Assembly (NCBI GenBank): GCA_964520555.1
Contig: CAZFNN010000001.1
Coordinates: 253,858 to 317,857 of the forward strand
Origin: an uncultured Ignavibacteria bacterium
GTDB lineage: Bacteria; Zixibacteria; MSB-5A5; CAIYYT01
Length of the DNA stretch: 64,000 nt
Reading direction: 5' to 3'
The notes under the pieces: model-generated
The model's input: only the letters and a program-made list of their open reading frames with translations
The model's database searches: none
Told to the model about the DNA's origin: nothing
Made by a program: the position numbers and the translations under genes
Part shown: piece by piece, positions 37,468 to 56,302 of the stretch
Layout: each line of letters opens with the position of its first letter
How positions within the stretch are numbered: the first letter of the stretch is position 1

Positions 37468-38256
37468 TCAGATACATTTGACAAACCCGCCGTCGATATT
37501 GACAGCGACGCCGGTGATGTAGCCGGCGCGCTCACTGGCGAGGAATGCCGCCAGATCGCCCAATTCCTCGGGTCGACCGAGACGTCCAGCTGGGATCATC
37601 TGCTCCCAGCCGGCATAGACGCTCTTGATCGACTTCCCGGTCGCTCTGTTCGTCGCAGCCGCCAATTCCTCCAGCCGCTCGGTACGGGTGTAGCCGGGAC
37701 AGATGACGTTGACCGTTATGCCATGGGGTGCCAGTTCGTTGGACAGAGCTTTAGTGAATCCGTGGACCCCCGGACGCATGGTGCTCGACAGCATCAGCGT
37801 CTCGCTGGCCTGCAGGGCTACGATCGAAGTAATGCTGATGATCCGACCCCAGCGTCGCTCGATCATCGACGGCACCGTCGCCGCGCAAAGCATGATCGTG
37901 GACTTCAGGCTGAGCGCATAGGCATTGTCCCAATCGGTGGTCTTCATCTCAAGGAATCGACGCATCGGTGGCCCGCCGGCGTTGCAGACGAGGATGTCAA
38001 CCGGTCCAAGCTTGGCGTTGACCTTTTGCGCCGCAGCTTCAATGGCCGTCTTCCGTGTAACATCACACACCAACGGCAAAACGCTCACGCCGGTCTCAGC
38101 CAGAATCTGTCTTGCGGCTGCCGCCACATTTTCCTTCCGCCGCGACAACATCGCGACACTCGCCCCTTCGCGTGCCAGCGCAGCAGCAATCGCCTTGCCG
38201 ATGCCTGCTGAGGCACCGGCAACCAATGCAACTTTGTCCTTAAGTCCGAGATCCAT
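37468..38256 (-). CDS. SDR-family oxidoreductase (3-oxoacyl-ACP reductase-like)
   Basis: KVALVAGASAGIGKAIA (TGxxxGxG), NAG, YxxxK region; about 262 aa. Confidence 0.8.
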   Translation of the reverse strand: MDLGLKDKVALVAGASAGIGKAIAAALAREGASVAMLSRRKENVAAAARQILAETGVSVLPLVCDVTRKTAIEAAAQKVNAKLGPVDILVCNAGGPPMRRFLEMKTTDWDNAYALSLKSTIMLCAATVPSMIERRWGRIISITSIVALQASETLMLSSTMRPGVHGFTKALSNELAPHGITVNVICPGYTRTERLEELAAATNRATGKSIKSVYAGWEQMIPAGRLGRPEELGDLAAFLASERAGYITGVAVNIDGGFVKCI

Positions 38257-39613
38257 GCCCGAGAAGCCCAAACAGATGCGCGACGGTGACGATGCCCTGA
38301 TGGAAATCTATGAGGGAGAACTTCTCATTCGGTGAATGGGCATTGTCGTCCTGCTGGCCGAAGCCCAAAAGCAGCGTATCGAGCCCGAGTTCTTCCTTAA
38401 ACGTGTTGACAATCGGGATCGACCCGCCCTCGCGAATAAACACCGGCTTGCGGCCGAAACCCTTCTCAAGCGCGTCTACACAGGCCTTGACCATGAAGTT
38501 ATCGCGCGCGACGATCGCCGGCTTGGCGCCACCCAACTTCTTCACCTCGACCGTCACCGTGGCCGGCGCGATCTTGTGAACATACTTCTCGAATTTCGCA
38601 AGGATATCCTCCGGCGTCTGATCCGGCACCAACCGCATCGTGACTTTGCAGCCGGCCCAGGACGGCACAATGGTCTTGCTGCCTTCGCCGGCATAGCCGC
38701 CGTAGATGCCGTTGATCTCGCAAGTGGGACGCGCCCAGACGCGCTCCAGGGTCGAGTAGCCCTTCTCGCCGACTGTAGAGGGCGAACCGGTCTTGCGCAG
38801 ATGCTCACTCTCCTCATATTTGAGGGAGCCAAACATATCGCGCTCCCAGCCTTCGACCTCGCGCACTTTGTCGTAGAAGCCGTCAATGAGCACATGCTTG
38901 TTGTCGTCATGGAGCTTGGCGATCATCCGCGCCAGCTCCACCACCGGATTGGCAATCGAGCCGCCGAACGATCCGGAGTGCAGGTCCTTGTCCGGCCCGA
39001 CCACCTTGATTTCGGCTGCGGCGATGCCGCGCAGTCCGTAGGTGATGGCCGGGATTCCGCGGCCATACATCGCCGTGTCGGAGACGATCACGCCGTCGGC
39101 CTTGAGCAATTCATGGTGATCTTTGATGAAGTGTTCCAGGTTGTTGGAGGCGATCTCCTCTTCCCCTTCGATGAGGAACTTCAGATTCACCGGCAGTTCC
39201 TTGCCGGCTTTCAGATATGACTCCGCCGCCAGCAGATGGATCAGGAACTGACCCTTATCATCGGTGGCACCGCGGGCATAGATGGTTTCGCCGTCGATGT
39301 GCGGTTCAAAGGGCGGGTTCTTCCAGAGATGGAGCGGATCGACCGGTTGGACATCGTAGTGGCCGTAGATCAGGAGCGTGCGCTTGTTGCCCGGATTGTT
39401 GTATTCGGCAAAGACAATCGGGTGACCTTTGATCGGAAAGATCTGCGCCTTCAGGCCGGCGGTTTCAAAACGCTCCTTAACGTGTTCGGCACATCGCTGG
39501 ACTTCTTCCTTGAATTTGGAGTCCGCCGAGACCGACGGATACTTGAGCAGATCGACGAGATCGGTGACGAACTTACCGCGATTTTTGTCGATGTATTCCA
39601 ATACCGGTTGCAT
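38240..39613 (-). CDS. M20-family metallopeptidase (dipeptidase-like)
   Basis: LIYGHYDVQP, GATDDKG, zinc-ligand spacing typical of M20/M25/M40; 457 aa. Confidence 0.8.
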   Translation of the reverse strand: MQPVLEYIDKNRGKFVTDLVDLLKYPSVSADSKFKEEVQRCAEHVKERFETAGLKAQIFPIKGHPIVFAEYNNPGNKRTLLIYGHYDVQPVDPLHLWKNPPFEPHIDGETIYARGATDDKGQFLIHLLAAESYLKAGKELPVNLKFLIEGEEEIASNNLEHFIKDHHELLKADGVIVSDTAMYGRGIPAITYGLRGIAAAEIKVVGPDKDLHSGSFGGSIANPVVELARMIAKLHDDNKHVLIDGFYDKVREVEGWERDMFGSLKYEESEHLRKTGSPSTVGEKGYSTLERVWARPTCEINGIYGGYAGEGSKTIVPSWAGCKVTMRLVPDQTPEDILAKFEKYVHKIAPATVTVEVKKLGGAKPAIVARDNFMVKACVDALEKGFGRKPVFIREGGSIPIVNTFKEELGLDTLLLGFGQQDDNAHSPNEKFSLIDFHQGIVTVAHLFGLLGHGSRT

Positions 39614-39749
39614 ATACGCTCTCCTTGGTTTGCGTCAATCGTGCAGGGAAAGCTACCCCGACCCGCCGTTTTGTCAAGCGGATTCGCCCCGGTTCCTCCG
39701 CCGGGAAATCGGCTTGACTCCAGCCGCCTGCCATGCTACGTTCTGGGCG

Positions 39750-39766
39750 ATTGGCACGCAGCCAAT
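39750..39766. promoter_or_regulatory. Inverted repeat ATTGGC-N5-GCCAAT between a TTGACT -35-like element and the first peroxiredoxin start (candidate operator)
   Basis: Seen directly, 14 nt upstream of the ATG. Confidence 0.3.
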
Positions 39767-39780
39767 GATTCGGAGGCAAG

Positions 39781-40329
39781 ATGCAAATTGGCGAAAAAGC
39801 GCCGTTCTTCAAAGGCGTGGCCGTCATGCCGGACAAAACCTTCAAGAAGATTACCTTGGACGATTACCGGGGCAAATGGTTGGTGCTCTTCTTCTACCCA
39901 CTCGATTTCAGCTTCGTCTGCCCGACGGAGGTGCGCGCTTTCTCGCTGGCCTTCAACAAATTCAAGGATGTCGGCGCCGACCTGCTTGGCTGTTCCGTCG
40001 ACTCGCACTTTGCCCATCTGGCCTGGATTGAAAAAGAGCTCGGCCAGGTGAAGTTTCCGCTCCTCTCCGATATCACCAAGAACATCTCGCGTTCCTACAA
40101 TGTACTCGTGCACGGCGCGTTCAGTCTGCGCGGCACGTATGTCATCGATCCCGACGGCGTACTCAAGTCGATCGTGGTTAACGACACGTCGATCGGTCGC
40201 TCGATTGACGAAACCCTGCGCACGCTGAAAGCGATTCAAACCGGCGAACTGACCGGCGCCGGCTGGCAGCCGGGCGACGAGACGCTTGGCCTCGATGGCT
40301 CCAAGCACTACGACTCCGGAACCGACTGA
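39781..40329 (+). CDS. Peroxiredoxin (Prx1/AhpC-type fold; peroxidatic Cys present, canonical resolving Cys absent)
   Basis: FFYPLDFSFVCPTEV peroxidatic motif. C-terminal GELTGAGWQPG occupies the place of the typical GEVCPAxW (Cys replaced by Thr). Confidence 0.85.
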   Translation: MQIGEKAPFFKGVAVMPDKTFKKITLDDYRGKWLVLFFYPLDFSFVCPTEVRAFSLAFNKFKDVGADLLGCSVDSHFAHLAWIEKELGQVKFPLLSDITKNISRSYNVLVHGAFSLRGTYVIDPDGVLKSIVVNDTSIGRSIDETLRTLKAIQTGELTGAGWQPGDETLGLDGSKHYDSGTD

Positions 40330-40458
40330 GGCGATGGCTTCTGTCTAATACCTGCGCCGGTCTTCATCGACATTCCTGTACAAGTTCGACTTGACTGAGA
40401 GTCTCCGACTGTCTATGCTGATAGTGCAGTTGCGGTATTACTCTGCACCGGAGGTAAC

Positions 40459-40992
40459 ATGCAAATCGGTCAACCCGCACCCGAGTTCTGCGGAGTTGCT
40501 GTCATGCCGAACAAGCGGTTTCGCGAACTCCGCATGACCGACTTTCGCGAAAAGTGGCTGGTGCTCTTCTTCTACCCGCTTGACTTCACTTCCGAATTTC
40601 CACGTGAGCTGCAATCATTCGTTGAGATCTACCCGCGGTTTCGAGGACTGAATGTCGAAGTCATTGGCTGCTCGGTTGATTCGCATTTCACGCACCTGAA
40701 TGCGATCGAACACTACTTCAGTCAAATCAGCTTCCCCCTGATGTCTGATCTTAACAACGACATTGCGCGCAACTACGAAGTGCTGACGGACGGAGGATTC
40801 AGTCAGCGAGCAGTCTTTATCATCGACCCCGCCGGCACCCTGAGAGTGGCCTGGGTAACCGACAGTGCCCTGACTGGGTCTGTTGATGAGATCCTGCGAA
40901 TCGTCAGTGAACTCCAGACCAAGGATGGGCTCGGGTTGGAGACTCCGGCAGACCGGCACACTCTTGGGCACTCGCGGCCCGAGTCCACTTAG
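40459..40992 (+). CDS. Peroxiredoxin-like paralog lacking the peroxidatic cysteine (probable pseudo-enzyme)
   Basis: Aligns over its whole length with the upstream Prx (MQIG.PAP.F.GVAVMP.K.F......DFR.KWLVLFFYPLDF...VIGCSVDSHFTHL), but the active-site FVCPTE is FTSEFPRE and no C-terminal Cys is present. Confidence 0.75.
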   Translation: MQIGQPAPEFCGVAVMPNKRFRELRMTDFREKWLVLFFYPLDFTSEFPRELQSFVEIYPRFRGLNVEVIGCSVDSHFTHLNAIEHYFSQISFPLMSDLNNDIARNYEVLTDGGFSQRAVFIIDPAGTLRVAWVTDSALTGSVDEILRIVSELQTKDGLGLETPADRHTLGHSRPEST

Positions 40993-41017
40993 TTGCAGAC
41001 AGTGAAATGGCGGGGCT

Positions 41018-41536
41018 TCAAGCTACAAATACGCGGTAAAGAAAGATCCCGATCAGCACGAACGACACGATAAGCTGAACTACGGCGCCGAAGACAAACC
41101 CGACAAATGTCCCGGCACCGGCTTTGAGAGACGCCGTTAACGATTTGCCGACCAGCAGCTCGACGACGACGGCGCCGACGAGCGGCCCGATGATCACACC
41201 GACGAGCGAGCCGACAAAGAGTCCGATCACCATGCCGACAAAAGCGCCGAACATTCCCCAGCGCGAGGCGCCCCACCGCTTGGCGCCATACACCTGCACA
41301 AAGTGTTGAAGTATCCAGATCACGGTAACCGCGATGCCGGAATAGACCAGGAACTCGCCCGAGAGATAAGCGTAGCCGGTGAAATAGCCGAAGATGGCCA
41401 TCGCCGCCCAGATCAGTGGCAATCCCGGGATGACCGGCACGATGACTCCGGCAGCGCCAACCAACATCGTTAGGAAACAGCCGACGAAGAGCAGGACTTC
41501 CGCTGTCGTTGTTTGCAAGAGGAGAAGCGAGATCAC
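41018..41536 (-). CDS. Small multi-TM membrane protein (DUF456-like), last gene of the TPP-riboswitch operon
   Basis: 172 aa, four or five Gly-rich TM helices (IPGLPLIW.., GLFVGSLVGVIIGPLVGAVVV). Lies 39 nt downstream of the SSS permease on the same strand. Confidence 0.45.
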   Translation of the reverse strand: MISLLLLQTTTAEVLLFVGCFLTMLVGAAGVIVPVIPGLPLIWAAMAIFGYFTGYAYLSGEFLVYSGIAVTVIWILQHFVQVYGAKRWGASRWGMFGAFVGMVIGLFVGSLVGVIIGPLVGAVVVELLVGKSLTASLKAGAGTFVGFVFGAVVQLIVSFVLIGIFLYRVFVA

Positions 41537-55078: not shown

Positions 55079-56302
55079 CTACTTTCGCGCCAGCGTTCCT
55101 TTCACACGATAAAACCCGCGCTTGCCGACCTTCAGCAAGTATTCCCGTTCGACCTTTAACTGCGCGTTCTGATCCGAGACACGCTCGTTGTCCACGGCAA
55201 TTCCTCCCTGCTTGACCAACCTTATCACTTCACTGGTGCTGGACATGATCTGCAACTCGACCAGTAATTTAGGTAGCCAGATCGTATCCTCCCCCCAAGC
55301 GTACTGCAGTGACGGAATCTCGTCCGGCAGCCCCTTCTTGGCGAAGATATTTTCAAATTCCTTCTCCGCCTGCTCGGCAGCCGTCACATCATAGTACATA
55401 CGCACAATCGTCCGCCCCAGTTCCTTCTTGAATCTGACCGGGTTCTCACCCGCGGCGATCTGCCGGTCGATTTCGTCGATCTGGGCAAACGGATAGTCGC
55501 TGACGAGCCGGAAATACGGAATGATCAGCCGATCCGGAATCGACATCACCTTGCCGAAGATTTCTTTCGGCGGCTCGGCCACGCCGATGTAGTTGCCGAT
55601 CGACTTGCTCATCCGCTGGATACCATCGACGCCTTCGAGGACTGGGAGCGTCAAGGCGACCTGCGGTTCGACGCCGTAAGCCTCCTGAATCTGGCGGCCG
55701 GTCAACAAATTGAATTTCTGTTCGGTCGCACCCAGTTCGACGTCCGCCTTGATCGCCACTGAGTCGTACGCCTGCATCAATGGGTACAGCAGCTCGTGGA
55801 TCGAAATCGGCGCCTGCTCCGCCCAGCGTTTGGCAAAATCCTCGCGCTCCATCATTCGTGCCAAAGTCATCTTGCCGGTCAGACGCAGAATATCGGCAAA
55901 GGCCATCTGCGCCAGCCACTCGCCGTTGCGGCGCACCTCGCACATCTCGGCTGGTATTACCTTGTAGAATTGTTCGAGATAGGTATGTGCATTCGCCTCA
56001 ACCTGCTCGAGCGTCAACTGCGGCCGGGTGACCAAGCGGCCCGAAGGATCACCCACTTGGGCGGTATAATCGCCGATGATGATGACAATGTGATGTCCAA
56101 GGTCGGCAAATTGCCGCAGCTTGCGCAGCCCGACTGTGTGACCGAGGTGGATATCGGGCGCGGTCGGATCAAAACCTTGTTTGATCACCAGCGGCTTGCC
56201 GGTCCTGACCGCACGCTCCAGCTTCTTTTCCAGCTCCCCCTCAGGAAGGATTTCCACCGCATTCTCACGAATTTTCATCATCTGTTCGGCAACAGAGAGC
56301 AT
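55079..56302 (-). CDS. tyrS: Tyrosine--tRNA ligase
   Basis: HIGH variant (DIHLGHTVGL), KMSKS, C-terminal S4-like domain; 407 aa. Confidence 0.95.
   Translation of the reverse strand: MLSVAEQMMKIRENAVEILPEGELEKKLERAVRTGKPLVIKQGFDPTAPDIHLGHTVGLRKLRQFADLGHHIVIIIGDYTAQVGDPSGRLVTRPQLTLEQVEANAHTYLEQFYKVIPAEMCEVRRNGEWLAQMAFADILRLTGKMTLARMMEREDFAKRWAEQAPISIHELLYPLMQAYDSVAIKADVELGATEQKFNLLTGRQIQEAYGVEPQVALTLPVLEGVDGIQRMSKSIGNYIGVAEPPKEIFGKVMSIPDRLIIPYFRLVSDYPFAQIDEIDRQIAAGENPVRFKKELGRTIVRMYYDVTAAEQAEKEFENIFAKKGLPDEIPSLQYAWGEDTIWLPKLLVELQIMSSTSEVIRLVKQGGIAVDNERVSDQNAQLKVEREYLLKVGKRGFYRVKGTLARK

Follow-up and report, generated by a model that had tools for sequence, protein, structure and literature searches.

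A natural peroxiredoxin-fold protein lacking the peroxidatic cysteine, encoded beside a 1-Cys-type peroxiredoxin in uncultured Zixibacteria

Peroxiredoxins (Prxs) are defined by a peroxidatic cysteine (CysP), and the schemes used to classify them drop sequences without this residue; natural Cys-free Prxs are scarcely described because classification discards them. The locus considered here is a pair of adjacent Prx-fold genes, copy 1 and copy 2, in a 64,000-nucleotide stretch of DNA (the window; positions 253,858 to 317,857 of contig CAZFNN010000001.1, GenBank assembly GCA_964520555.1) from an uncultured bacterium deposited as Ignavibacteria and placed by GTDB in the Zixibacteria. Copy 1 keeps CysP, whereas copy 2 has lost it. 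The described systems closest to this pair include: (i) the typical 2-Cys Prxs of the Prx1/AhpC subfamily (e.g., human Prx1, Prx2 and Prx4 and S. typhimurium AhpC), which resemble both copies in overall sequence and core motifs and copy 2 in predicted fold (template modelling (TM) score 0.85), (ii) engineered Cys-to-Ser mutants (Anabaena Alr4641 C56S and T. cruzi MPX), which like copy 2 have a Prx1-type fold without CysP (PMC4349727, PMC8855072), (iii) yeast Tsa1 and Tsa2, which like this pair are two Prx1-type paralogs of one genome with Ser in one and Thr in the other at a catalytic-triad position, and (iv) the 1-Cys Prxs, mostly of the Prx6 and Prx5 subfamilies, which like copy 1 have CysP only.

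The typical 2-Cys enzymes differ from copy 2 in having CysP, the resolving cysteine (CysR), a second Arg and the residue equivalent to Trp81, all of which copy 2 lacks, and from copy 1 in having CysR; in addition, both copies belong to a clade of short (170-185 aa) proteins that have neither the GGLG loop nor the long C-terminal helix. The engineered CysP-less mutants each carry one substitution made in the laboratory and are intact in all other respects, whereas copy 2, as read from its sequence, is natural and multiply remodelled. The Ser of copy 1 (PLDFS) and the Thr of copy 2, the latter shared with P0166, a 2-Cys Prx of a sister lineage, parallel the natural Ser/Thr pair of Tsa2 and Tsa1, forms which differ in decamer/oligomer stability (PMC5024103). 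While both yeast proteins are active peroxidases, the Thr-type copy 2 is predicted to be catalytically dead. By sequence, copy 1 is of the Prx1/AhpC type, unlike Prx6. Full-text literature searches for natural CysP-less Prxs or a 'pseudo-peroxiredoxin' returned engineered mutants only.

Copy 1 and copy 2 are paralogous, as the initial annotation of the window had proposed: the two plus-strand genes encode proteins that share 46% identity over 170 aa in a gap-free alignment (E 2e-58), a common N-terminus (MQIG.PAP.F.GVAVMP.K.F) and the AhpC-TSA domain PF00578 (1.4e-35 for copy 1 and 2.7e-31 for copy 2). Their overall sequence is that of the Prx1/AhpC subfamily (best PDB matches 1e-35), and the core motifs FFYPLDF, SVDSHF, FPLxSD, IIDPxG and SVDExLR are kept in both. 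Of the blocks first listed as shared, FFYPLDF and GCSVDSHF.HL are indeed common to the two proteins, while the VIG preceding CSVDS is found only in copy 2 and reads LLG in copy 1. No further Prx gene is present in the window.

The loss of the peroxidatic cysteine from copy 2 is real, heritable and rare. Where copy 1 reads FVCPTE, copy 2 reads FTSEFPRE, with Phe47 (TTT, 40597-40599) in place of CysP and no cysteine in its C-terminal part, just as first described. The active-site segment PLDFTSEFPRE keeps Thr at triad position 44 and departs from the Pxxx(T/S)xxC motif (P40-L-D-F-T44-S-E-F47), and Phe occupies the peroxidatic position in every ortholog. These orthologs, P0002, P0003 and P0004, are 79%, 78% and 73% identical to copy 2, all 177 aa long, and read FTSEFSRE, FTAEFPSE and FTDDFPRE; the next matches are canonical Prxs at no more than 49% identity. 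Phe is thus kept in four clusters formed at 90% identity (P0001-P0004) and in 12 further members of the P0002 cluster that cover the motif. The same CysP-less paralog, which the initial annotation had suggested looking for in related genomes, lies in the same tandem slot in four Zixibacteria species clusters (NCBI names the cluster members of both genes candidate division Zixibacteria), and the copy-2 contigs keep one gene order: M20 peptidase (-), copy 1 (+), copy 2 (+), DUF456 (-), SSF transporter (-) and TonB-dependent receptor (-). A sequencing error or frameshift at the codon for position 47 was considered and rejected, as no alternative frame yields Cys and Phe is kept across species; the conservation in four species clusters, together with the purifying selection described below, refutes such an error.

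Among the 252 homologs fetched, CysP is absent only from the copy-2 family. A scan of metagenome DNA for the pattern FYPLDFTx[D/E]F gave one true match, already in the P0002 cluster, and the species-representative genome collection, among which the source genome apparently is not included, gave only canonical Prxs, the best at 41% identity to copy 2. Sixty other Prx loci from diverse genomes cover the peroxidatic position, and all have Cys except two with an in-frame stop codon. In these two, L009 (FTFA*PTE; a Desulfobacterales metagenome-assembled genome) and L065 (TSG*TNE; a Synergistaceae metagenome-assembled genome), the stop falls exactly at the peroxidatic position and may encode selenocysteine, as in PrxU-like proteins.

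The remodelling of copy 2 is wider than the single cysteine first reported. Judged by the 48 columns of the alignment in which 236 catalytic relatives show at least 90% conservation, the four copy-2 orthologs all keep 29, which constitute the fold core (FFYPLDF, S-D-S-H, P93, IID, G126, E144, R147 and Q153), and all have changed 12. The altered columns include F45, V46 and C47 in the first turn of the CysP helix, W82 (the equivalent of S. typhimurium AhpC Trp81), L116 and G118 flanking the catalytic Arg, G139 and R140 (the second Arg), A151, and W162 and G165 of the resolving-Cys arm. Relative to the family consensus, Val46 is replaced by Glu, Trp82 by Ala and Gly139-Arg140 by Thr-Gly. Position 82, which corresponds to a key active-site residue in Prx classification, a scheme that also defines the Pxxx(T/S)xxC motif (PMC4749874), is Ala in 4/4 copy-2 orthologs and Trp in 99% of the 236 relatives. 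The catalytic Arg117 is present in three of the four copy-2 clusters and is His in P0003, and R140 has become Gly in all. The typical 2-Cys arrangement of CysR followed by Trp is likewise missing, the tail GLGLETPADRHTLGHSRPEST having neither Cys nor Trp; the protein ends in ...QTKDGLGLETPADRHTLGHSRPEST, and the CysR arm is replaced by a conserved GLET..D....G.SRP tail. Most replacement residues are themselves conserved among the orthologs (E/D46, F47, A82, Q116, A118, G140 and E151).

The absence of CysP, CysR, the second Arg and the active-site Trp demonstrates, at the level of the predicted protein, that copy 2 is incapable of Cys-sulfenic peroxidase chemistry, in agreement with the first reading of the locus. 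That copy 2 might still be a peroxidase through another cysteine, either Cys11 or Cys71, is very improbable. Cys71 (in GCSVDS) is invariant in the copy-2 family, as such an enzyme would have it, but is no new feature, since catalytic relatives whose peroxidatic residue is Cys47 have it as well. In L001, Tyr stands in place of Cys11, and the residues that activate the thiolate are gone (R140, W82 and, in part, R117).

Copy 2 is predicted to keep the Prx fold, as indicated by its PF00578 match and by superposition of its AlphaFold2 model. The model, whose mean predicted local distance difference test (pLDDT) score is 85.4, is least confident at residues 41-50 and 131-140. Its superposition on human Prx1 and Prx4 gives TM 0.85 and a root-mean-square deviation of ~1.5 A; a Prx2 structure also gives TM 0.85. 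The most conserved stretch of the copy-2 family is residues 73-92 (DSHFTHLNAIEHxFxQIxFPL; 80% invariant), which corresponds to a remodelled region II (LAWI replaced by LNAI), and strand beta7 has diverged as well (SIVVN replaced by VAWVT). The C-terminal tail is conserved despite its predicted disorder. One could read this pattern as the gain of a new catalytic or small-molecule-binding function in a remodelled pocket (Thr44, Glu/Asp46, Phe47, Arg117 and His79), with the conserved E/D46, F47, Q116 and A118 and the adjacent, largely invariant region 73-92 as its marks. This reading is improbable: positions 45, 48 and 49 are variable, L001 has His in place of Arg117, the model reaches its lowest pLDDT near the supposed pocket (residues 41-50), and Pfam and NCBIfam return Prx models only.

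The initial annotation took the pair for a tandem duplication. By contrast, copy 2 appears to be no fresh duplicate of copy 1 but the degenerate counterpart of a 2-Cys Prx that fills the same slot in a sister lineage. In L072 and L073, the slot between the copy 1 ortholog and DUF456 holds P0166 (175 aa; L072 7699-8226), which retains the intact motifs FVCPTE, GRS, LSW and GKLTGCGW. Copy 2 has altered all four and has evolved 3-4 times faster; nevertheless, it shares with P0166 its genomic slot, its orientation, an alignable promoter region, its highest identity (52%, against 46% to copy 1) and its best profile score. In hidden Markov model comparisons, 4/4 copy-2 proteins score 192-203 bits with the slot-2 profile against 180-185 bits with the copy-1 profile. 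The region between copy 1 and copy 2 can be aligned with that of L072 through the -35 and -10 hexamers, the ATCGACA..TACAAGTT block and the ribosome-binding site. In a neighbour-joining tree, the copy-2 clade (100% bootstrap) stands on a very long branch beside the P0166 clade at 41%; the grouping of copy 2 with P0166 and the next-wider clade receives 72%. Recent duplication of copy 1 as the source of copy 2 is rejected, as that grouping receives 2.5% and both identity and profile scores point to the slot-2 Prx. Tajima relative-rate tests assign the copy-2 lineage 3-4 times more unique changes than P0166 (e.g., 44 vs 14; p ~1e-6 to 3e-3 depending on outgroup, mostly near 1e-5), while copy 1 and P0166 evolve at equal rates. 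The position as a whole behaves as a 'peroxide-defence slot' of variable content, which has no gene in L075 (7550-7583) or L074 (7544-7855) and in L006 (3912-6690) carries a catalase, a Fur-family (possibly PerR-like) regulator and an MIP aquaporin.

The accelerated copy 2 is under purifying selection. By the Nei-Gojobori method, the ratio of nonsynonymous to synonymous divergence (dN/dS) of copy 2 is 0.15-0.26 in comparisons of different species and 0.10 in the closely related pair L069/L081, compared with 0.035-0.11 for copy 1, 0.03-0.06 for the M20 peptidase and 0.06-0.11 for DUF456; the excess of synonymous over nonsynonymous change in copy 2 is significant (Fisher p 1e-6 to 1e-19). The four copy-2 genomes are closely related (M20 95-97% and EamA 97-99% identical), whereas copy 2 is only 72-78% identical among them. 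Even so, five copy-2 sequences have the same 177 codons with zero indels at dS up to ~1, and when unselected substitution is simulated to the observed divergence, only 3-4% of runs keep the copy 2 open reading frame without a stop. Copy 2 is hence no decaying pseudogene, given the low dN/dS, the intact length and the simulation, and it combines the two marks of a pseudoenzyme, the loss of essential catalytic residues and purifying selection (p <=1e-6). It is probably a retained non-catalytic protein, and its lineage, judged by the predicted proteins, is a Prx1/AhpC-family branch of pseudoenzymes from a narrow clade of uncultured bacteria.

That the gene is on its way out, drifting under a residual constraint against misfolding of the expressed protein, is accordingly a poor prospect, although several features are what such a course would leave: a copy 2 dN 5-10 times that of flanking genes, a dN/dS 3-5 times that of copy 1, the restriction of the family to one narrow clade, and a slot-2 gene that is missing from L075 and L074 and has given way to other genes in L006. 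What drift does not account for is a dN/dS far below 1 even in the most recent pair, the lack of indels and stops in the five sequences, and the conservation of the promoter, the ribosome-binding site and the replaced active-site residues themselves.

Copy 1 has the complete active site of a peroxidase. Its segment PLDFSFVCPTE fits the Pxxx(T/S)xxC motif (P40-L-D-F-S44-F-V-C47, with the Cys codon at 39919-39921), and R117 (the catalytic Arg, in SLRGTY), R140 (the second Arg, in GRS) and W82 (the AhpC-Trp81 equivalent) are all present; W82 and the profile matches place the protein in the Prx1/AhpC subfamily. The top NCBIfam models are PrxU and AhpC (148 and 145 bits), both under the equivalog cut-offs of 270 and 272; for copy 2, too, PrxU and AhpC-type models match best and fall short of their equivalog thresholds. 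As first noted, copy 1 lacks CysR: the position is Ala160 (GCC, 40258-40260) within GELTGAGW, where the closest relatives read GELTGCGW, and the C-terminus (...QTGELTGAGWQPGDETLGLDGSKHYDSGTD) is Cys-free. About a dozen orthologous clusters share with copy 1 both GELTGAGW and the Ser of PxxxSxxC. By these residues, copy 1 is a 1-Cys-type derivative of the Prx1/AhpC clade in which the change of CysR to Ala is recent and lies inside the GELTGCGW clade. Members without CysR are reported in all six Prx subfamilies, though they are unusual in Prx1 (PMC4749874). As only CysP is present, the sulfenic acid of copy 1 would need an external thiol for its resolution. The wider family, a large clade, consists of short Prx1-type proteins of 170-185 aa (P0143-P0252) from Zixibacteria, Omnitrophota and others; their resolving Cys is shifted downstream by two residues from its canonical site (GELTGCGW/GKLTGCGW vs GEVCPxxW), and the GGLG loop is also missing.

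For the present role of copy 2, a thiol-independent binding or holdase function is favoured, with partnership to copy 1 ranked second. In the proposed course of events, the ancestor would have been an ordinary 2-Cys Prx1/AhpC-type enzyme encoded directly downstream of copy 1 under its own promoter. A burst of change in one genus-level Zixibacteria clade would then have converted CysP to Phe, removed CysR together with the active-site Trp and the second Arg, and placed an acidic residue beside the catalytic Arg that remained; the altered sequence would have become fixed and then been held by purifying selection, with the ancestral promoter and ribosome-binding site kept. Expressed from this promoter alongside copy 1, copy 2 would serve as a thiol-independent holdase or scaffold in the peroxide-stress response, using region 73-92 and the conserved C-terminal tail as its working surfaces, while copy 1 would be the working peroxidase of the pair, a 1-Cys enzyme recycled by an external thiol. 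There is about an even chance that copy 2 is a selectively retained pseudo-peroxiredoxin descended from the 2-Cys slot-2 ancestor and now acting by binding. Its assignment as a holdase or scaffold is tentative, at rather less than even, whereas a broader statement is slightly more probable than its negation: that the copy-2 family is a naturally occurring, wholly cysteine-independent bacterial member of the typical 2-Cys Prx lineage, maintained by selection and repurposed either as a chaperone insensitive to redox state or as a subunit that regulates the 1-Cys copy 1. Engineered CysP-less 2-Cys Prxs retain chaperone/holdase activity (PMC4349727; PMC8855072), which would make a holdase or scaffold role the simplest continuation of ancestral moonlighting.

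Several points weigh against this explanation. Prx holdase activity is usually tied to decamers or higher oligomers; proteins of the Prx1 type pair into B-type dimers at the beta7 edge and build (alpha2)5 decamers by the A interface. In copy 2, the Trp82 region, which contributes to the decamer-building interface (for the role of Trp81, see PMC4749874), is altered, and the beta7 edge strand of the dimer interface has diverged; membership of copy 2 in a canonical decamer is doubtful because the decamer-interface region is remodelled. The descent from the slot-2 gene, while well supported by position, is only moderately supported by phylogeny in view of the long branch, and the shared-derived residues that argue for orthology of copy 2 and P0166 are few (3 vs 2). 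The nearest outgroup, L075 (M20 85% identical), has deleted the slot-2 gene, so this gene is dispensable in relatives. Finally, constraint on copy 2 is relaxed 3-5 fold: its dN/dS is ~0.2, and copy 1 and the flanking genes have values 3-5 times lower.

Where a homo-oligomeric enzyme has a pseudoenzyme paralog, the latter often acts as a partner subunit, and copy 2 could, as the initial annotation suggested, be such a non-catalytic partner of copy 1. It would form B-type heterodimers or mixed oligomers in which its tail would lie over the CysP pocket and tune the reactivity of copy 1, its protection from over-oxidation or the access of the reductant. This arrangement is attractive because in Prx1-type enzymes, which are obligate dimers, the partner's C-terminal arm completes the active site (PMC4749874); moreover, copy 2 always lies immediately downstream of copy 1, its tail is conserved yet predicted to be disordered, and the three promoters of the locus share an extended -35 element (TCSNCTTGAC). 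It is nonetheless unlikely. Copy 1 functions without copy 2 in related genomes, and the copy 1 orthologs without copy 2 (L075, L074 and L006) look alike; comparison of the orthologs shows no copy-2-linked substitutions in copy 1 outside its variable tail. The dimer-edge strand and region II of copy 2 have diverged from those of copy 1, and stoichiometric co-translation is not enforced, as copy 2 has its own promoter.

Should copy 2 prove to be such a chaperone or regulatory subunit, the locus would be an experiment of nature in which thiol chemistry is separated from the peroxidase-independent functions of Prxs, a subject of long debate. Copy 2 and its traceable catalytic ancestor would offer a clean system for roles of the Prx fold without redox (holdase, scaffold or regulator) and a stepwise example of an obligate-dimer enzyme turning pseudoenzyme. 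The pair also cautions against reading antioxidant capacity from genes annotated as 'peroxiredoxin' or 'redoxin' in metagenome-assembled genomes, since such labels overstate it. As only a narrow, uncultured clade is concerned, the wider impact is moderate.

Coordinates of the genes and DNA elements of the locus (window numbering; UTR, untranslated region).
Feature	Position	Strand	Size or sequence	Remarks
Copy 1, Prx1/AhpC-type peroxiredoxin	39781-40329	+	182 aa	open reading frame list, PF00578 match, active-site residues
Copy 2, predicted cysteine-free (CysP- and CysR-free) Prx-fold protein (pseudo-peroxiredoxin)	40459-40992	+	177 aa	
M20 peptidase gene	38240-39613	-		divergent to copy 1; left synteny anchor and substitution-rate control
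DUF456 membrane protein gene	41018-41536	-		right synteny anchor of the peroxiredoxin slot
Copy 1 promoter	39714-39719 (-35), 39737-39742 (-10)	+	TTGACT, 17 nt spacer, TACGTT	-10 too weak for consensus scan
Copy 2 promoter	40391-40396 (-35), 40414-40419 (-10)	+	TTGACT, 17 nt spacer, TATGCT	consensus scan
Copy 1 Shine-Dalgarno	39772-39776	+	GGAGG	conserved
Copy 2 Shine-Dalgarno	40450-40454	+	GGAGG	invariant in 5 loci
Conserved block	40366-40386	+	ATCGACA-N6-TACAAGTT	directly upstream of copy 2 -35; invariant in 4 copy-2 loci and L072
Palindrome, 17 bp	39750-39766	+	ATTGGCACGCAGCCAAT (ATTGGC-N5-GCCAAT)	predicted 5' UTR of copy 1

The signals that would drive expression of the pair are conserved. 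As the initial annotation stated, each gene has its own TTGACT-type promoter, and both hexamer pairs are kept in orthologous loci: that of copy 1 in 7/8 loci despite diverged flanks, and that of copy 2 in all five loci compared, which are the four copy-2 loci and L072, where it lies upstream of the intact slot-2 Prx. In both genes, GGAGG is found 4-5 nt 5' of the ATG. These conserved signals identify copy 2 as competent for transcription and translation at the level of sequence prediction. The spacer between the two genes shows no intrinsic terminator, so transcription of the first may read through into the second. The block directly upstream of the copy 2 -35 hexamer is a possible regulator or UP-like site, which would have been retained after the enzyme died. 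The extended -35 element has four matches in the window, of which three are the promoters of this locus and the fourth lies inside a coding sequence at 55650; the M20 peptidase, copy 1 and copy 2 may be under shared regulation.

The palindrome upstream of copy 1, initially proposed as the operator of a redox regulator, does not bear out that role. Its arms are 6 bp, and about one such repeat is estimated to occur by chance in the 177-bp spacer. It occurs once in the window, where matches with one mismatch number 4 against 2.8 expected, and it is absent from the aligned orthologous loci L069, L072 and L074; in L001 it persists with a compensatory change (ATTGGT-N4-ACCAAT), and in L005 it is weakened. 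The hairpin has a z-score of -1.3 relative to shuffled sequence (RNA folding z range -2.2 to +0.8), and Rfam has no match in 39400-41200. As a chance-level repeat with conservation restricted to the closest relatives and no recurrence, it finds no support as an operator and would be, at best, a weak lineage-specific 5' UTR hairpin.

Two further inverted repeats are observed at the locus. A 12-nt repeat with 92% complementarity, GTCAAGCGGATT (39673-39684) and AATCGGCTTGAC (39707-39718), spans the -35 boxes of the divergent promoters of the M20 peptidase and copy 1. In the 5' UTR of copy 2, before the ribosome-binding site, GTGCAG (40424-40429) and CTGCAC (40443-40448) form a 6-bp inverted repeat with its arms 13 nt apart, and the bases that flank it, GCAGTTGC and CTCTGC, are conserved in orthologous loci.

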